Origin: a virus | Lineage: Duplodnaviria; Caudoviricetes | Length of the DNA: 34,460 bases | Strand: one strand, 5' to 3' | IMG/VR virus record: IMGVR_UViG_3300030059_002546 | Location: 1 to 34,460 of that record | In this document: piece by piece, positions 2,069 to 29,543 of the stretch | Numbering within the stretch: position 1 is the stretch's first letter | Layout: every line of letters begins with the position of its first letter | Program-made: the position numbers and the translations under genes | The notes under the pieces: generated by a model | What the model saw: only the letters and a program-made list of their open reading frames with translations | Databases searched by the model: none | What the model was told of the DNA's origin: nothing

Positions 2069-5000
2069 CTATAAGCCATATGAATCCCAAGGTGCTGGCG
2101 ATCCATTTATGCCAACGGCCACGGCAGCTATATGGACTCCTGGCGTATTATCCATGCCAAAACCAACAAAAGCGTTTGCTAACTCATTACTCGGAAGTGT
2201 CACGGAGTACACAGGTGTTTCTGGCCGTGACCCGTCATAAGCCCAATATCTTGTTGATATAATTCCTGCACCTGTTACAGTAGTTTCCACCCAATACCAG
2301 TTAGCATTAAAGTTGGTGGTACTGATGCCACCCGCGACCCCACTCCTTGTGAATACATCATCTACCACATATTGTATTTCAACATTATCAAACGTTGTTA
2401 CTAATCCACCGGCAACCCACTCAGGTTCAGCGCCATCCTCTTGTATTCTGGGGCATGGTTTAGGTTGGTATGTTCTTGATGTTGTACTTCCGGTCCCTTT
2501 CATGAGTGCAGCAATAGTTACAGTTCCAGTTTGAGCGCCTATCTCGTCAATTATTAACGCCAAATTAACAGAGTTAAGGTTGCCCCCTATGAGCGCGATA
2601 TTTCCAGTTACTCCAGACGGAAGGGTTGATTCAAATATTGAGTTGGTGACACTGTTCGGATTATTAGCAGCAGGTCTTAAAAATGGAACTGTTCCACCCA
2701 CTTCGTAATCATCCACATTGTAAAGGAATTGTGTTACAGCATTAGTTGATATATTCACGCCATCAACTAGCGTGTTAAACGCTTCTAAGGTATAGCCAGT
2801 GGTTACACCAGCATCAATAACTAATGCTACATAATTATTAACTTGAGAAGGGTTATAAAGATTGTTACCCGTTATCACGCCGCCATCAAATGTAGCAGAG
2901 CTAAGTTTTAAGCACTCACTGTTAAAGTCAATATTATTAACGTTGTCAACAATCTCTAGTCCACGTTGCACTTGTGCTTGGCTATAATCTGCCAATCTAT
3001 GCCCGATAACGCTATTGTCATCAATAACCGCTTTATAGCCTTGGTCTTCTGGATTCGCCCCAACAAACGCCGCCCATGAACCGCTATCATTCCCTAAATT
3101 CGCCACATCCTCTGTAACGTTTTTGGCAAACCTAACAGTTCCCGGAGCGCCGTAATAAACCAAGCAATGAAGTACGTTAGAATAGTTACCCCTTACAAGG
3201 AGTCCGTCAATAAATTCTCTCGGATTGGTGTTGTTTGTTATAGAGCAGTCCACACCAAAACGTCTATATTGCGACATAAAGTTGTCGCAAACAGATACGT
3301 TGTGCGAAGTATATCCTTCAATATTCTTTGCCAAGTTACTATTAACTGCAAAAGACGATCCTATGCCCTTGCCGAAGGTGTTATAACAAACGTGAGCATT
3401 ATCAATTGCACCACTGATGTATGCATCATGGTCTTTAACATCGTCTTTTGAATCGGTTTCAAACTCACAAAAGATTATTCCAACACTCCAGTTCACGTTT
3501 TTCATGGAGAGGTATACGTTGTAACTGTGCTCTACCGATCCGCTTGATATACAATAGTTTTCAGAACCGCAATCAGAAACCGTTGCTGACGCCAATACAA
3601 AACCATCCACATCCCAAGATGTATAAGCTATCCTCGGTTGAAGCCTCCCGGCATCATTTAAGTACCAGATGTACCCTGTCTGAGGTGTTTCGGGAGGAAT
3701 GGTTTCAATAGGCAAAAATACAGTTGTTCCAGATGGGTTTCCGGCACTGGTAAAGTCATTCCGATTATTCAGTAGCCCATCAAATTTACAACCCAAGAAT
3801 GTCCAATGGCGGATAAATCCATCTGCCGAGCAAACTGCCGAGAAGGTTGTACCAGAGACGGCTCCTTTAAATTCTACGTTGTGATAGCAGTCTCTAAACG
3901 TACCCGATCCAGTAGAGCTTAACGACCTACCAACAACCGTGTTTTTAAACTCGCCATCGACAACCCCGTTTGCCATAAAGAATCTATGGTCAGCAGGCGC
4001 GTTAATTGAGCTACCAATACCAGCCGCTAAAACAATCTGATCTGTTCCGGGATTTGTTAATCTGAACCCACCTTTGTAGCCAACGATATAAGTTGACATT
4101 CTGGTTGATTGAAGCTCTCCACGGGTCCATTCGCCAGTCACATACCAGAAGTTGCCGGTTAACGTATTATCGGTAGGTGGTGCTGCCTTCGGTCCAGTTG
4201 AGAAAGTAACGCCCGTGTAGTCCGCTCCTAATGCTTCGGCCAACTCAATCTCGTCATCACTTATTTTAGCTGCAACTTCGTAACGACCGGCAGGGAAGCC
4301 GCCCTCATTCGCCCCTGTAAAATACATATAGTTGTAGTTGTAAACTGGGTTAATGTTTGCGGATGCAGCAGTGTGGTCGTAATCAGCGAATAAACCTGTA
4401 CCGGTGACACGTTTAGTTGCATTTGTATAAGCAGCGGTTCCTGATACAACAAAGGCGCTTAAGCCATCATAGGCTGAATTTCCATTAACGGAATCCGCAT
4501 ACTTAACCGGGAAAGCGTTTTCAGTAACATTAAATGTTTTACTGAGACTGTTTACCCGGACAAATCCCTCACCATTTTGACCTTTTACTAAACAGGTAAC
4601 TTTATAATTATCAATAGCGGGAACAATCGCGTGATAGTTACCCTCCTTAGTATCTGAAAACAGATCAAATGCCGCATCCGTTATAGGATGTAGCAAGCCA
4701 AAATAATCGGGTACAGGGTTATCTTCCGCATCTGTAATGATGAACCTGATATCGAGATCGTTAAACTCATTAATTTCGTTAGCAGTTAAAGTCCTGCCGC
4801 CTGATATAGAAATATCACCAGGACGTATTTTGCATATCAACTGCTTTGGAACGGCATCTGGCGTTTCAACAATTTCAAAATCATTGACAACAAGACCGGT
4901 TATATCAATGTGTTTATAACCAACGTAATTTAAACCTAGATCAGGCTCTACAGTTCCCTGCCCAACAACGCTCTCAACCGTAACTAAATCATCTGTATTT

Positions 5001-5779
5001 GATGCTGAAGACGTTCCGGCTGCATTGGTTGCGGTAAATGATAATCCAGCAGCAGTACTTTCTGCGTCAGGTGTGCCGGTTATTGATCCTGTTGATGCGT
5101 TAAGCGTTGCCCATGAGGGCAACGTTCCTGTAGCAGTCTCAAACGTATCTATCTCGCCTGCAAACACATACGCAATGCTGAAACTGAAAGGAACACCAAT
5201 TGTGGCCTGTGGAAAATCAAGAGTTGCAATAACTGTAGGCGCTTCTAGTGCAGCCGCTTTATATACTGTGACCGTTCTAGTAGTAGGCGTAATCGTAAAG
5301 CCAGAAGGCACACCAATAATATCCAGCGTAACGCTCTGACCGTCTTCAACCGTAATGGTGTGAATATTGACGGTATAAACAGCCCCAACTTTCGACACAA
5401 CACCCTTGCTTGCGCCTGTTACCACAAAGTTGCCAGTGGTCAAGCCTGGGTCAATATCAAACGTTGCCGTTAATTGCGTGGTTGAAACTGAGCCACTTGT
5501 GCCGTTTGCGGTTAGGGATTGGAAGGCTACGGCTGTTGGTTCGACAAAAACCATTGTGGTGCGTGAAAGCGGCGAGAAGCTGTAGCCACTCGGACTTGTC
5601 ATGGTGATTGTTGCTTCGTTATTTCCTGCAGGCAGGCTAACGCTAGATATTGGTAAAACGCGAGTTGTTCCGGTTCCAGTCAATGTGCCTTTTACGGCAA
5701 AAGGAACGCCAAAATTATCAGCAGTTAATGGTCCGGGATCTTTGTTATATTCAAATACCAATTCTGATGTTGTAGCCAT
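2069..5779 (-). CDS. 1236-aa multidomain virion-associated protein: Ig-like repeats, He_PIG/cadherin-like domain, probable beta-helix, C-terminal lectin-like domain
   Basis: Two tandem ~90-aa Thr/Val-rich repeats; LPSWATLNASTGSITGTP; KYADSVNGNSAYDGLS; Asn-rich xxxxGN/DN repeats; TAATG overlap with upstream gene. Confidence 0.75.
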   Translation of the reverse strand: MATTSELVFEYNKDPGPLTADNFGVPFAVKGTLTGTGTTRVLPISSVSLPAGNNEATITMTSPSGYSFSPLSRTTMVFVEPTAVAFQSLTANGTSGSVSTTQLTATFDIDPGLTTGNFVVTGASKGVVSKVGAVYTVNIHTITVEDGQSVTLDIIGVPSGFTITPTTRTVTVYKAAALEAPTVIATLDFPQATIGVPFSFSIAYVFAGEIDTFETATGTLPSWATLNASTGSITGTPDAESTAAGLSFTATNAAGTSSASNTDDLVTVESVVGQGTVEPDLGLNYVGYKHIDITGLVVNDFEIVETPDAVPKQLICKIRPGDISISGGRTLTANEINEFNDLDIRFIITDAEDNPVPDYFGLLHPITDAAFDLFSDTKEGNYHAIVPAIDNYKVTCLVKGQNGEGFVRVNSLSKTFNVTENAFPVKYADSVNGNSAYDGLSAFVVSGTAAYTNATKRVTGTGLFADYDHTAASANINPVYNYNYMYFTGANEGGFPAGRYEVAAKISDDEIELAEALGADYTGVTFSTGPKAAPPTDNTLTGNFWYVTGEWTRGELQSTRMSTYIVGYKGGFRLTNPGTDQIVLAAGIGSSINAPADHRFFMANGVVDGEFKNTVVGRSLSSTGSGTFRDCYHNVEFKGAVSGTTFSAVCSADGFIRHWTFLGCKFDGLLNNRNDFTSAGNPSGTTVFLPIETIPPETPQTGYIWYLNDAGRLQPRIAYTSWDVDGFVLASATVSDCGSENYCISSGSVEHSYNVYLSMKNVNWSVGIIFCEFETDSKDDVKDHDAYISGAIDNAHVCYNTFGKGIGSSFAVNSNLAKNIEGYTSHNVSVCDNFMSQYRRFGVDCSITNNTNPREFIDGLLVRGNYSNVLHCLVYYGAPGTVRFAKNVTEDVANLGNDSGSWAAFVGANPEDQGYKAVIDDNSVIGHRLADYSQAQVQRGLEIVDNVNNIDFNSECLKLSSATFDGGVITGNNLYNPSQVNNYVALVIDAGVTTGYTLEAFNTLVDGVNISTNAVTQFLYNVDDYEVGGTVPFLRPAANNPNSVTNSIFESTLPSGVTGNIALIGGNLNSVNLALIIDEIGAQTGTVTIAALMKGTGSTTSRTYQPKPCPRIQEDGAEPEWVAGGLVTTFDNVEIQYVVDDVFTRSGVAGGISTTNFNANWYWVETTVTGAGIISTRYWAYDGSRPETPVYSVTLPSNELANAFVGFGMDNTPGVHIAAVAVGINGSPAPWDSYGL

Positions 5780-5820
5780 TATTCTTCCCCGCCGTTAGCT
5801 GTGACTGATAACCAAATGAC
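5258..5820 (-). repeat. Two tandem Ig-like protein repeats; the first is split across two ORFs
   Basis: VIWLSVTANGGEE*|MATTSELVFEYNKDPGPLTADNF...SPSGYSFSPLSRTTMVF aligns with VAFQSLTANGTSGSVSTTQLTATFDIDPGLTTGNF...VPSGFTITPTTRTVTVY. Confidence 0.8.
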
Positions 5821-6285
5821 CTCAATCGTTTCGTTGCCGGTGACGCGCACTATCGGCGAGTTGATTTCTACAACTGCGGTGCGACCGACGATTGAATTGG
5901 CAGATGATGGATTTGTGGTTGAGCTGAAGACTTTTCCGGTAAAGAAATCGCTTGTGCCGTCCTGATAATCAATCCGGAATGAATGTTCTGTATTCTTAGT
6001 GGCACCATCTACAGCAGCAGCTAAAATGGCTTGTCCGGCATCTAATATGTCCCGCCCAAGCTGCAGTGCTGTTTGCCCATAATTGATAAATCCTTTGTAC
6101 TTCTGGGTTACACCCGTCTTTAATGGATTGTGCTCAACTACCTGTGCGCTTGGCCCGTATTCGGGGATGTCGGTTACCTCTGCTACCTCGGTGTAGTCCA
6201 GCGCCAAAAAACCAGCACCATCAAGCACTAAAGGCTCACCAACAGCTACGGAAAAAACAGTCCCGGTACTGGTTAAAACGCCCAT
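5779..6285 (-). CDS. Second tail tube protein paralog with C-terminal extension
   Basis: Gap-free alignment with 13687-14145, 106/148 identical by hand count; AGGAG RBS. Confidence 0.9.
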   Translation of the reverse strand: MGVLTSTGTVFSVAVGEPLVLDGAGFLALDYTEVAEVTDIPEYGPSAQVVEHNPLKTGVTQKYKGFINYGQTALQLGRDILDAGQAILAAAVDGATKNTEHSFRIDYQDGTSDFFTGKVFSSTTNPSSANSIVGRTAVVEINSPIVRVTGNETIEVIWLSVTANGGEE

Positions 6286-6327
6286 GTGATTTCTCCTATT
6301 TGTGTCTGCATGAAAACTCCGGGCAAT

Positions 6328-6351
6328 AAAAAACCCGCACTAGGCGGGTTT
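6328..6351 (-). terminator. Intrinsic terminator after tail fiber assembly gene
   Basis: AAACCCGC-CTAGT-GCGGGTTT-TTT. Confidence 0.85.
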
Positions 6352-6373
6352 GTTTGGTGAGGTTTGTTGGCGG

Positions 6374-6892
6374 TTACAGCTGTATCTGATTTGCGTTTAT
6401 AAATAAATCGTCAAACTGCTGTTGAGTCAGATTTAATCCGCCTTCACCAGCAAGTAGCTGCATTGTCGGGCTGTTTTTTTGCCATGTATTTGCTGCATAT
6501 AAAGCCTGTTCAGCAATTATTTTTGTTGTGGGATCTGGAATAGCATCAACAAGAGCAATCACAGTGGGCCAATAGCCTGATATTTTTAGCTGCGCCGTTC
6601 CCTGCGCACGACTCACTTGAGTTATCGGCTCAGGATCGGGCGTAGGAATTTCATCCTGCCACCCAGAAGGCGTCTCATCCTCGGTCAATATTTCTTGTGA
6701 TTCGACAGCTTTATCAACCAGTCGGTAAACTGTTCGCTTTTCTCCGCTATAGATGAATGGAGCGCCTTCGCGCACTGTAACGGGCTTACCGTCCAATTTA
6801 GCCGCAAGCAGCGACTGATACTGTGCATCGCTTATTTCAATGCCACCACTAATCACTGACTGGCTTATAGTGTCGTTTTTCATATACGGCAT
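6374..6892 (-). CDS. Putative tail fiber assembly/chaperone protein
   Basis: GGIEISDAQYQSLL N-terminus and VSRAQG...LTQQQFDDLFINA C-terminus; coupled to fiber gene. Confidence 0.65.
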   Translation of the reverse strand: MPYMKNDTISQSVISGGIEISDAQYQSLLAAKLDGKPVTVREGAPFIYSGEKRTVYRLVDKAVESQEILTEDETPSGWQDEIPTPDPEPITQVSRAQGTAQLKISGYWPTVIALVDAIPDPTTKIIAEQALYAANTWQKNSPTMQLLAGEGGLNLTQQQFDDLFINANQIQL

Positions 6893-7800
6893 TATGCGAT
6901 CCTCATGTAATAGGTTGCACCGATGTTTCGTGGCCTTGTTTCATCACCGCCAGTTGCGCCAGAATTAAGGGTTGCTGTAGAACCAACTACACGACCATTT
7001 CCAGCGCCAACATAATCAAGAATCCCCCCGATAGGGTGGGTATGCGAGGCAAACTGATCGTCCTCCTCCGTGCCGGATGATCCTGGCCGAATAAATTGAC
7101 GAGACGTATTAAGTAGCTTGACCGTTTGCCCATTCATTGGGCTTGGTACATAATCTATTACTGCCGTAGCTACCACATCAGGAGCAGTGCCTGACACGCT
7201 CTCGCTGGTGAGCAATCCTTCGTTATATTCGCCAGATCCATCCTCGCCAGCTGTTAATTTTATAAATTTTGCAGTTCCTGAGTTTGATGGCTCGTCCACT
7301 CCAGTTAAGTGAGTCCATAAAGCAAAAGGCTCGCCTATGGCCCTCAACAAAAAAGCCTGCTGATTAACCTGCTCTAAAGTTGCTAAATCTGGCGCTTGCT
7401 CCGGGGTGACAATTCCGTTAAAACTCAGCGATACGGACCAGCTACTGAAGGTGCCACTACCCTGAACTACCTGAACATTAACTACCAGAGCACCCGTTGA
7501 TGTACTGTATGAAAGTACATCGCCAATCATCCAGAGACTGCCATTTGTGGTGCTGGCAATCTTTACCGACATGCCGGTGAAATAGGATTTTCCGGTTTCA
7601 ACCGTTAATGTTTTTTCAGCTACAGATATTGCAAGCGAGGTTGTTGATACACTATTAGTTGAAAGGCTATTTAATGCGGCAGCATAGGTATTTAATTCTT
7701 GCTGAAACTGTGGGAGCGCACCCAAAAAGTCGTCAGCTCTTGAATCAAAGTTATCGGGGCTAGCTGTGCTTGGTGGTGTGGGTAAGGCTGTTATTTCCAT
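6892..7800 (-). CDS. Short tail fiber with collar-like domain
   Basis: N-terminus LPTPPS...FDSRADDF; IGEPFALW, RQFIRP, DQFASHTH and GGDETRPRNIGATYYMRI collar/tip motifs. Confidence 0.8.
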   Translation of the reverse strand: MEITALPTPPSTASPDNFDSRADDFLGALPQFQQELNTYAAALNSLSTNSVSTTSLAISVAEKTLTVETGKSYFTGMSVKIASTTNGSLWMIGDVLSYSTSTGALVVNVQVVQGSGTFSSWSVSLSFNGIVTPEQAPDLATLEQVNQQAFLLRAIGEPFALWTHLTGVDEPSNSGTAKFIKLTAGEDGSGEYNEGLLTSESVSGTAPDVVATAVIDYVPSPMNGQTVKLLNTSRQFIRPGSSGTEEDDQFASHTHPIGGILDYVGAGNGRVVGSTATLNSGATGGDETRPRNIGATYYMRIA

Positions 7801-12682: not shown

Positions 12683-13123
12683 TTAGGTAATTTTTCCAAA
12701 CACGTCTTTAATGCCTTTACTCAGCACTTCACGCCAAGACGTGATCTTGCTTTCATCCGCATAGGGAGCCGGATAGGTTTTCTGTTTTGATTTTTGCGAC
12801 ATCACGGCATATTCCCGCGACATCAATATGATTTGCTCGGACTCCCAGCCCGAAAGCGGTACACCTGATTGCTGGCAATAGCTTTGGACATCGCCCCAAG
12901 TAAATGGAGTAATCCCCATGCTGCCTTGATTGATTTGCCCCATACGGGAAAAGTGATGCGCCAGGTCTTCAGCGTTTTCGATTTCCGGCAACGCTTTGAA
13001 TGGTGATTCATCTTCCAGCGTTTTTATTCGTGGCTCTGTATCTTTATCTTTCACTGACGGCGCTGTATGCAGCCATGCCAATTGCGCTGCATACAGTTTT
13101 AGTTTGTCCGTCAGCTCTTGATA
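12683..13123 (-). CDS. Tail assembly chaperone, frameshift extension (gpT-like)
   Basis: -1 frame open from the slippery site through YQELTDKLKLYAAQLAWLH...; PFTWGDVQSY...LSGWESEQIILMSREY motif. Confidence 0.85.
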   Translation of the reverse strand, partial: YQELTDKLKLYAAQLAWLHTAPSVKDKDTEPRIKTLEDESPFKALPEIENAEDLAHHFSRMGQINQGSMGITPFTWGDVQSYCQQSGVPLSGWESEQIILMSREYAVMSQKSKQKTYPAPYADESKITSWREVLSKGIKDVFGKIT

Positions 13124-13686: not shown

Positions 13687-14145
13687 TTATGGTGTTGGTA
13701 AAACCCGAACCACGATTGAATTGATTTCAACACTGGCCGTACTGCCTACCATTGAATTAGCTGAACCAGGGTTTGTGGTATAACTGAAAACCTTGCCAGT
13801 GAAGTAATCAATCGAACCGTCTTGATATTCGATACTGAAGGAATGCTCATCATTCTTGGTTGAACCCGTAACACCATCAGACAAAATAACCTGGCCAGCG
13901 TCAGCAACATCCTGTGCCAGCTGTAATGCTGTTGAGCCGTAGTTAATAAAGCCTTTGAATTTCTGAGTAACGCCGGTTTTAAGCGGGTTATGCTCAACGA
14001 CCTGAACATTGGGGCCGTACTCTGGAATATCGGTAACCTCACCCACTTCAACAAACGTTAAAGCGCCGAAGCCTGCTGCATCGATGGTTGCTGGTTCGTC
14101 AGCGACTACCGATAAGATTGTGCCTGTGCTTGTTAAAACACTCAT
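13687..14145 (-). CDS. Major tail tube protein
   Basis: Canonical position; VGEVTDIPEYG, KFKGFINYG, DAGQ, YFTGKVFS motifs. Confidence 0.9.
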   Translation of the reverse strand: MSVLTSTGTILSVVADEPATIDAAGFGALTFVEVGEVTDIPEYGPNVQVVEHNPLKTGVTQKFKGFINYGSTALQLAQDVADAGQVILSDGVTGSTKNDEHSFSIEYQDGSIDYFTGKVFSYTTNPGSANSMVGSTASVEINSIVVRVLPTP

Positions 14146-25695: not shown

Positions 25696-25995
25696 CTATT
25701 CTCCAGTTGATTTAATTTCATCTAATATTTGCTCTAAGCTATGAACAATGGCGTAATGACCTTTCCACTCCGCCGCTAACTTGATTTGGCTGTCTTTGAT
25801 TGCACCGGCTTTGAAGCCGCCTGATTTTTTAACTGCTTTGTCAGGATTTTTTATCTCAAAAAGATATGTAACCCCGTTGTGTCCAACCAAAATATCGTCA
25901 TGCCCAGTCAGTACGCTGTAACCCATTTTCCTTAAGTCGCTGACTATGGATTTTTGATTATCATCAACTCTTGCAGCCCTTCTAAACTTACTCAT
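25696..25995 (-). CDS. PD-(D/E)XK nuclease (VRR-NUC/resolvase-like)
   Basis: RAARVDDNQ..IV..LR, DILVG, LFEIK, Q...W.G motifs. Confidence 0.8.
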   Translation of the reverse strand: MSKFRRAARVDDNQKSIVSDLRKMGYSVLTGHDDILVGHNGVTYLFEIKNPDKAVKKSGGFKAGAIKDSQIKLAAEWKGHYAIVHSLEQILDEIKSTGE

Positions 25996-26884
25996 TGGCA
26001 GCCCTCAAAGCTTTAATTCCATATGTTTCTGTCTGCCTGTGGCAGCCGATGCAGAGAGTCCTGCCGTTGTCGATATTTAAACGAAGCTCTGGGTGTGTAC
26101 TAAACGGCTTGATATGGTCTGCATTTAGTTTTCCGCCAACCTGACCACATATTTGGCACTGATAGCCGTCGCGCTCAAATACTGCAACACGCCAGCTCTT
26201 GTATTCGAAGGAGCCTCTAATAATCATGGCATCAGTAGTTTTTCCGCCTTGCCATCTGTGAGATTTAGCGCCTTTCTGCCGTTTAGCTAATTGCTTGCTT
26301 CTGCAGAAGTCAGAGCAAGTTCTTCTTGCGTTGCCTGCATATTGACGCTCAAAATCACTGCCACAAATAGAGCACTTTGCCTTCTTCTGCATGGGTGGCT
26401 TGCCGTTTACATGCCCAATATGATCATCGCAATAAGTCCTCTTATGAATATCGCGGAAAACCTTACTACAGGTCTTGCAAGTGTTTTTCCGTCCGAGTTT
26501 AGGTCTGGGCTGCTGGGTTGAATTTGAAATTGCTGCGGCAATAGGCGCAATCACTTTAAGCCTTTCAATGTTATCCGGCCTTGAGCCAAGGCAACTTCTG
26601 CTGCAGTATTTTGATTTAGCATTAACCGGCTTGAACTTTTCGCCACAAGTTGGGCAAACCCTCAACTCATCCATAACGCCTTTATAGTTTATGTTGCCGC
26701 TGCCAGACATTCTTTCGGAGTGAGCTTGATTTTGGCATTCTGTAGAACAATACTTAGGTGGCCTTGATGGTCTGTTGCAATGAAAAAAATCATTACTGCA
26801 GTATTTACAACAAGCCACCTTCTGCAGACCTGATCGGAAGGCTTGGTTTTCGTCCACTCTCGCGGCTTGACGGTATTTACCCAT
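25988..26884 (-). CDS. HNH endonuclease with repeated CxxC...YCS..C zinc motifs (homing-type)
   Basis: WRVAVFERDGYQCQICG, ADHIKP, NGRTLCIGCH; AAGGAG RBS before MGKYRQ. Confidence 0.9.
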   Translation of the reverse strand: MGKYRQAARVDENQAFRSGLQKVACCKYCSNDFFHCNRPSRPPKYCSTECQNQAHSERMSGSGNINYKGVMDELRVCPTCGEKFKPVNAKSKYCSRSCLGSRPDNIERLKVIAPIAAAISNSTQQPRPKLGRKNTCKTCSKVFRDIHKRTYCDDHIGHVNGKPPMQKKAKCSICGSDFERQYAGNARRTCSDFCRSKQLAKRQKGAKSHRWQGGKTTDAMIIRGSFEYKSWRVAVFERDGYQCQICGQVGGKLNADHIKPFSTHPELRLNIDNGRTLCIGCHRQTETYGIKALRAANE

Positions 26885-27074
26885 CAACCAACTCCTTAAA
26901 CCTTCCGTCAAAAAACTCGTTTTCAGGCCGAATCCACAAACTGCCGTTATCAACACTTTGATAAACACAAGCTCTAGTTAGGTCGACCTCCATTACAGCA
27001 ATCATCAGCAATTCATATTTACCACCTGATTTTTGATGTAAAAAATATCTTCTGTTTTTTATTGGCTGCTTCAT
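26877..27074 (-). CDS. DUF1653-like small protein
   Basis: HQKSGGKYE...VYQS...LWIRPENEFFDGRF. Confidence 0.75.
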   Translation of the reverse strand: MKQPIKNRRYFLHQKSGGKYELLMIAVMEVDLTRACVYQSVDNGSLWIRPENEFFDGRFKELVDG

Positions 27075-28561: not shown

Positions 28562-28953
28562 GCTGCATACCTCGCTGATGGCAGACTTATTCCAGCCTCA
28601 GCCGCCAATCGGTAACAGGTTTCGATTAGCTCGCTGTACTCTTGTTTTTTGAGGGTTTCGCTTGACTTGACGACCTCGATTTCACGGCCTGCCAGATTTA
28701 CGAATGTCGTACCCATCAGCTCAAACTTGCACAGCTCTTTAATCTCACCTTTTGTGTAACCGGTCTCGTCCGCAAATATGCCGCACAGGGTATGGAAGAA
28801 AGCGCGCTGCTCTGCCGTCTTATCTTCAACGTAATCCTGAACCGTGATGCGATACTTCTTATCAGCCGGTAAAGATTTAAGGCACTCGTAAAGACCAACT
28901 TTTATTTTGTCGCGTCTCTGGTCATCCAGGAATATGAAGGTGCGGGAGAGCAT
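28558..28953 (-). CDS. NinB/YbcN-like recombination protein
   Basis: KTAEQRAFFH, SSETLKKQEYSELIE, AAEAGI. Confidence 0.8.
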   Translation of the reverse strand: MLSRTFIFLDDQRRDKIKVGLYECLKSLPADKKYRITVQDYVEDKTAEQRAFFHTLCGIFADETGYTKGEIKELCKFELMGTTFVNLAGREIEVVKSSETLKKQEYSELIETCYRLAAEAGISLPSARYAA

Positions 28954-29543
28954 TAGGCGGCTCTCGCTGTGGTCTTTTCACGGACTCGGTTAATCAATCG
29001 TCCGTAGGTAATAGCCACTGGCTTAACTGCGTCTGGAACGTTTCTCAGGCCACGTTTATTTAAAATCGCGTGCTCTGCCCTGCTTATCATTTGCAGGTTT
29101 TCTATCTGCCAGTTAAGCGGATTTCCATCAACGAAAATGACAATATGGCCTTTCGGTATTGGTCCGTGATGCTTTTCCCATTCAACGCGGTGCTTGCCGC
29201 ACCACTTTCTTGGCTCTGCAATCTTGACTTCCAGCCATCCATCTTTTGAGATCCGCTCGGAACCTACCGGACGATGATTAACTGGAGTATTGCCTTTTTT
29301 GAATGTGGTTTTATTTGGCCCCTTACAACCAGCCAACGGACTAGGAATATTGCCCTTCTTAAAGCAGCCTGTCCTACCTGTCATCCAGCCTTTTCGTTTG
29401 CAAAGTGCGTTAATGTTTTTAATGTCATGGCTTGCATTAAACTTAGCGTTTACAGCGTCGGTTAATTCCCTGCGAACCATTGTCCGATTCGCATAGATGA
29501 AATCTAACTCAGCCTGGCCGTATTTAATTTGCCGGCCTTTCAT
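28953..29543 (-). CDS. HNH endonuclease (HNH_3-like)
   Basis: FKKGN repeats, HRVEWEKHHGPIPKGHIVIFVDGN...NL...RAEH. Confidence 0.88.
   Translation of the reverse strand: MKGRQIKYGQAELDFIYANRTMVRRELTDAVNAKFNASHDIKNINALCKRKGWMTGRTGCFKKGNIPSPLAGCKGPNKTTFKKGNTPVNHRPVGSERISKDGWLEVKIAEPRKWCGKHRVEWEKHHGPIPKGHIVIFVDGNPLNWQIENLQMISRAEHAILNKRGLRNVPDAVKPVAITYGRLINRVREKTTARAA

Follow-up and report, generated by a model that had tools for sequence, protein, structure and literature searches.

The locus described here raises the question of how two neighboring phage genes came to carry one Ig-like domain between them, and whether their products come together again in that domain. It lies in a 34,460-nucleotide stretch of DNA from a marine bacterial virus (IMG/VR record IMGVR_UViG_3300030059_002546), referred to below as the window. 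An earlier note on this DNA had described an Ig-like domain divided at a TAATG stop/start junction and had offered three options for it: a −1 frameshift giving one fused protein, two proteins re-associating by strand complementation as in pili, or an indel or sequencing error in one fused gene. The anatomy and the choice of options in that note proved right, whereas no signal was found for the frameshift and a sequencing error turned out to be very unlikely.

A second tube gene and an incomplete Ig-like domain

The window belongs to a lambdoid siphophage whose genes are read on the minus strand, including those for terminase, portal, capsid, connector, tail terminator, TTP1, chaperones, tape measure, fibre, fibre assembly, endolysin and spanin. 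TTP1 is the canonical short tail-tube gene, assigned by a PHROG profile (13687..14145, −). Two HNH endonuclease genes were also seen in the early region (25988-26968 and 28953-29543, −). A second tail-tube gene, TTP2 (168 aa; 5779..6285, −), and an ORF of 1236 aa with an intact 3.7-kb frame (2069..5779, −), whose product we call the cargo, are placed between the fibre-assembly gene and the endolysin. They stand 3′ of an intrinsic-terminator-like hairpin with a T run (6331..6351, −), which follows the fibre-assembly gene, is common to the relatives L007 and L009, and would lower the output of TTP2 and the cargo. A mini-ORF of 12 codons (6273..6311, −) begins at the ATG that starts the leader-type large gene in relatives, and is likely a relic of a replaced leader start. 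Since TTP2 and cargo residues 1-270 recur with 100% identity in a Methylophaga sp. MAG, the phage is likely a Methylophaga prophage.

TTP2 was identified by its match to phrog_158, the major tail (tube) protein (E 1e-17, residues 6-152), and by its likeness to TTP1; matches to Pfam TTP families were below the cut-off. TTP2 and TTP1 share 71.6% identity over residues 1-148, and their 148 codons differ by 73 synonymous and 42 non-synonymous changes. TTP2 adds a tail of 20 residues, in which residues 156-165 (5791..5820, −) correspond, by profile and model, to strand A of the Ig-like repeat and form the candidate donor strand. The end of TTP2 had been described in the earlier note as a match to the first strand of the intact repeat, and this was supported: among the 41,774 ten-mers from the six frames of the window, residues 156-165 ranked second against a first-strand profile with 18.6 bits, behind the intact repeat's own strand (33.3) and ahead of the third place (8.2), where the profile was built from 29 distinct first-strand 10-mers and anchored on the ANG motif, which favors the TTP2 match. 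The score of the TTP2 tail is lower than that of every one of the 29 family strands (22.1-34.1), which themselves trained the profile. Ile and Leu occupy two tail positions at which nearly every family strand has a small or polar residue; judging from the residues, this could mean a stronger intermolecular strand, or decay.

The cargo begins with repeat 1, which lacks strand A (residues 1-80; 5540..5779, −) and is by model and alignment the candidate acceptor. It is followed by repeat 2, an intact Ig-like sandwich by model and structure match (5252..5539, −), and by a He_PIG putative Ig domain found with Pfam (residues 181-259; 5003..5239, −). In the AlphaFold model of residues 1-178 (pLDDT 94), repeat 1 begins at the second strand, while repeat 2 has its first strand at residues 82-92. 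This model was made with an alignment of 12 sequences and used in place of a single-sequence fold, which gave an unusable pLDDT of 38. The closest solved structure to repeat 2 in a VIA search was a domain of the S-layer protein SbsC (Z 10.4, rmsd 2.5, 86 aligned), and Foldseek with the 1-178 model returned no match at E ≤ 0.001. For residues 270-1236 there was no Pfam match, and their likeness to beta-helix polysaccharide lyases is seen in language-model features alone (score 0.87). As a lead, the cargo is predicted to be a polysaccharide-binding or -cleaving protein.

At the junction the minus strand reads GGC GGG GAA GAA TAA TG, with the TAA at 5781-5779 and the ATG at 5779-5777, so that the TAATG overlap (5777..5781, −) lies within the A-B loop of the repeat. 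The letters, the frames and a GGGG placed 7 nt 5′ of the ATG (5787..5790, −) are as previously described. The duplex of this SD-like signal was calculated at −5.7 kcal/mol and ranked 20 of 30 genes tested, within the range seen in this phage. Of its 14 close junctions listed, 3 have a TAATG. The last three residues of TTP2 and the first six of the cargo ORF together give a loop of nine residues, in agreement with the earlier observation that the cargo starts where the repeat continues and that the length is preserved. Of 28 distinct intact A-B loops in the family, 26 have nine residues, the other two seven or eight, and none ten, after 16 of 64 domains had been dropped for not matching the anchor pattern. 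The junction contains two bases beyond a loop of nine codons, and none of 26 family loops has a Met at the corresponding position.

Among frameshifting indels that we simulated, a stop within five codons that overlaps an in-frame ATG was produced by 0.03-0.14% in three genes of this family, by 0-0.03% in TTP2 and by 0.7% in the tape measure gene. Under a lenient definition of a break compatible with re-initiation, the fraction was 4-6%.

Relatives of the cargo and of the second tube gene

The split was found in one near-identical lineage. The stretch 4500-7000 is covered by single contigs from runs X3, X4 and X8 (three studies, depth 26-37), which agree with the window at every position and without a gap; as these are contigs, rare variants would be invisible, and each run is a possible source of the window DNA. 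L001 and L010 match the window with 100% identity, the exact 168-aa protein is present on 37 contigs and the exact 1236-aa protein on 24, and one variant with a single-residue difference keeps the same start. In runs X11, X12, X15, X16 and X17, the matches stop short of the junction. All copies of the split are one clone, and because of this they give no evidence of conservation. They argue strongly against a sequencing or assembly error in a continuous gene, an explanation already largely refuted: its one support is that the comparison rests on contigs from runs that may have supplied the window itself, whereas the agreement of three studies over the junction, the identity of L001 and L010 and the many contigs with both exact proteins make it extremely improbable. 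The error half of the third option in the earlier note was thus set aside, while its other half, a real lesion, stays a serious contender.

Searches with cargo residues 1-270 gave 34 matches, 17 of which were chosen as phage-type by their N-termini; in all 17 the first strand is complete and is preceded by a short leader. One of the relatives, P0005, is 98.7% identical from residue 80 onward, and the contigs in X16 and X17 diverge from the window at 5539 and 5542 and continue into short leaders. Comparison of the junction among homologues, as had been proposed, gave two outcomes: the near-identical clone has the same split, and in relatives without TTP2 the large protein starts with a leader. 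In L007, L008, L009 and L179-L182, the large gene follows the fibre region and precedes the endolysin, and it has no tube gene ahead of it. The leader-type Ig/cargo gene in this slot (about 9935-12910 in L007 and L009, 7935-11423 in L179, 7323-10844 in L181) has a conserved first repeat and variable cargo. Among the phages with leader-type cargo are myovirus-like ones with a baseplate wedge, siphovirus-like ones with a central fibre J, and some that we take to be podovirus-like from their resemblance to P22 genes. Because the tail types of these phages differ, the cargo may need no tube anchor.

The window retains the terminator and the leader ATG of these relatives and then changes to a tube-type start region, and hence the TTP2-repeat-1 module likely replaced the leader by recombination. 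In the window, TTP2 stands in the leader's place and is the sole apparent anchor of the cargo. Farther into the cargo, the X16 phage contig has 81 differences from the window over 4500-5539; among the differences listed (40), all were at 5021-5255. This pattern points to a recent crossover close to where the He_PIG domain ends.

Protein, DNA-pattern and viral-contig searches detected no fused or diverged TTP2-repeat-1 junction beyond the same clone. Two proteins with unrelated cargo were found in a search for longer forms of TTP2, and one protein without a tube domain in a search for longer forms of repeat 1. None of the 150 best tube representatives (116 of up to 170 aa, 21 of 171-299 aa and 13 of 300 aa or more) had a cargo match at E < 0.1. 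Each of two DNA patterns of the junction hit one contig, which was the clone. The repeats of the cargo had no match in GenBank phages, and single-protein queries matched one of 83 genomes of the host family. A scan for short-tailed tube proteins returned only the canonical tube gene in the one locus read out of three, and among L001-L089 no tube gene besides that of the clone is followed by the cargo's Ig-like repeat.

Second tube genes were found in other phages by scans covering the best 80 of 287 and the best 80 of 101 candidates. In L024, L104 and L108 a second tube gene is in frame with cargo (431, 664 and 1494 aa), and a short canonical copy is present on the same contig. The second tube protein of L158 carries a terminal tail of 31 residues, and 5 nt after its gene begins a separate ORF related by homology to the L104 cargo (27%, E 1e-10). 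L186 and L187 have tandem tube genes of another family, the second of which is in frame with the window's Ig-like repeat (42% over 77 aa, E 5e-11; nine-residue loop). These phages are like the window in combining a canonical short tube gene with a second copy that has cargo, and in L104, L108 and L158 the second copy also stands beside fibre and lysis genes. They differ in where the cargo is joined: it is fused in frame in L024, L104, L108 and L186 and split off between whole domains in L158, and none was found split within a domain, whereas in the window the TAATG falls inside one. Because other phages have second tube genes fused to cargo or split from it, the locus most probably derives from a tube-cargo fusion that has been split and is translated as two coupled proteins.

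Several further arrangements were observed in these surveys. The same Ig-like repeat is carried in frame by unrelated phages, on the second tube gene in L186 (2695-3405) and on a head-tail adaptor in L188 (3314-4225). Tube proteins of L158 (9947-11895), P0108, P0129 and P0181 have short tails with repeated Leu-x-x-(Glu/Asp/Asn)-Gly motifs, and the separate ORF after the tube gene of L158 is lipase/esterase-like. Two short tube genes are in direct tandem in most of L032-L047 and in L069. A conserved ORF of 113-117 aa lies directly 3′ of the canonical tube gene in L004, L011, L017, L018, L020-L023, L026 and L030, and the one tested had no PHROG match.

Explanations for the split domain

If ribosomes shifted by −1 at a non-canonical site within the four final TTP2 codons, a minor tube-cargo fusion of about 1400 aa would result. 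Ig extensions of tail proteins made by frameshift are known in SPP1 (gp17.1*) and Listeria phages, where defined shift sites are used (PMC8718954, PMC5009743), one of them the +1 site CCC_UGA (PMC5009743). An in-frame tube-cargo fusion of 1494 aa exists in L108, and the −1 frame of the window is open, from TTP2 codon 165 only, as had been pointed out. The rule for a −1 shift site is X XXY YYZ. No slippery heptamer was present in TTP2 codons 146-168, none in the zero frame where the −1 frame is open, consistent with the earlier remark that a canonical one is missing, and no CCC precedes the stop. As a positive control, the phage's own G/GT heptamer was found at 13129-13123 (−), at the end of the tail-assembly-chaperone gene, with the −1 frame open for 148 codons into the ORF 12683-13081 (lambda G/GT type). 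Since this site was found, the heptamer test can detect a real one, and the phage's own site has a canonical heptamer. Whichever slip is considered at codons 165-168, each of the two tRNA sites has a mismatch at its first or second position, if not at both, and the RNA downstream folds only to −4 to −5 kcal/mol. Moreover, the −1 product would have a ten-residue loop, seen in 0 of 28 family loops, and if ribosomes slipped only once strand A had been made, the major product would carry half a domain at its end to no purpose. We therefore consider the frameshift unlikely. Transcriptional slippage was rejected, as no run at the junction is longer than four G, and ribosome hopping was set aside, as the short open −1 frame has no matching landing codon.

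The explanation that we favor, tentatively and at a little under an even chance, is that strand A of TTP2 re-completes the first Ig domain of the cargo and thereby hangs the cargo on the tail. The ancestor would have been a single fused TTP2-cargo gene. After the split, the cargo ORF would be read by re-initiation at the ATG of the TAATG, TTP2 is predicted to be a low-copy subunit among rings of TTP1, owing to the upstream terminator, and its C-terminal strand would slot into the incomplete first Ig domain. Several observations argue for this. The break lies in the loop that follows strand A, and both sides keep the family pattern and the loop length. The junction is unlike a fresh slip, given its two extra bases, a Met absent from the 26 family loops and an exact overlap that was rare in simulated indels. 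The SD-like signal is in the phage's range, and TAATG recurs at its close junctions. The leader has been lost, with TTP2 in its place as the only apparent anchor. TTP2 shows more synonymous than non-synonymous change relative to TTP1, and the long cargo ORF is intact. Finally, the same tube family has cargo fused in L024, L104 and L108 and separate in L158. Against it stand the single clonal lineage, the frequency of lenient breaks, the selection of coincidences by a genome scan, the score of the TTP2 tail below all family strands, and the presence of the cargo in phages with other tail types. A single first strand of ten residues may also bind weakly. Put in its most specific form, which we consider slightly less probable again, the locus would be a natural tag-and-catcher on a phage tail, in which a minor tube paralog donates the first strand to a separate 1236-aa beta-helix protein and so attaches it with no covalent link or frameshift; donor-strand complementation would then take place in a virion, with the polarity of pili reversed.

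Close behind comes gene fission without re-association, which we regard as a good possibility though somewhat less probable than re-completion of the domain. Here an indel broke a tube-cargo fusion, leaving TTP2 as a nearly bare minor tube subunit or idle and repeat 1 as a remnant, while re-initiation would yield a free cargo protein, one let out at lysis for instance, or the cargo would be useless. The occurrence of the split in one clonal lineage fits fission, as do the in-frame fusions that are the usual form (L024, L104, L108, and L186 with the same repeat), the relatives that have the cargo next to lysis genes without any tube domain, and the lenient re-initiation sites that follow some simulated indels. 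It explains less well why an exact stop/ATG overlap, rare after random indels in this gene family, is present together with a Met and two extra bases exactly in the A-B loop, and no fused form with the TTP2-repeat-1 junction was found in searches of limited reach. All other readings together retain very little probability.

Relation to known systems

In SPP1 gp17.1/gp17.1* (FN3) and in the Tsh proteins of Listeria phages A118, A500 and PSA, a minority tube subunit shows Ig-like domains outside the siphophage tail through an extension in another frame, and by its genes the TTP2/cargo pair is alike (PMC8718954, PMC5009743). Short and long products, both in virions, come there from one tube gene, whereas the short subunit of the window has its own gene, TTP1, and the window has a separate second tube gene, no slippery site, a break inside the Ig domain and a cargo of about 1240 aa. 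Lambda gpV, T5 pb6 and YSD1_22 also have a tube domain followed by an outward Ig-like domain, but they are major subunits in one chain (PMC8718954), while in the window a paralog is divided into two parts and further Ig and beta-helix-like domains follow.

The analogy with pilus donor strands drawn in the earlier note was apt in one respect. In chaperone-usher pili such as CupE, an Ig fold short of one strand is completed by a neighboring chain, and repeat 1 of the cargo lacks one strand in the model (PMC10104325). The polarity is reversed: pilins miss the final strand, have an N-terminal donor and use a chaperone, whereas here the first strand is missing and the candidate donor is a C-terminal tail. 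No dedicated chaperone or usher was found among 30 phage ORFs compared with PHROGs or 10 compared with Pfam, a search of phage genes only. If the favored explanation is true, the locus resembles pilus donor-strand complementation in the way it works but falls outside that definition by its polarity; it is not a frameshift-extended tail protein, and we class it as a variant of cargo display on tail tubes. Searches of the literature, mainly freely readable, listed no phage case of donor-strand complementation on a tail tube, and the consulted parts of PMC13370021 and PMC3556154 contained nothing on a split domain.

Two ways are known by which phages place Ig domains on their tail tubes, in-frame fusion and programmed frameshift. 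If the domain is indeed re-completed, a third way would be for two coupled gene products to complement each other by a strand; a very large cargo could then fold apart from tube assembly and join afterwards, and the locus would provide a short peptide/domain pair for phage display. If the junction is only a break, the locus records how Methylophaga-assigned phages swap the N-terminal anchor of a cargo between a short leader and a tube paralog.
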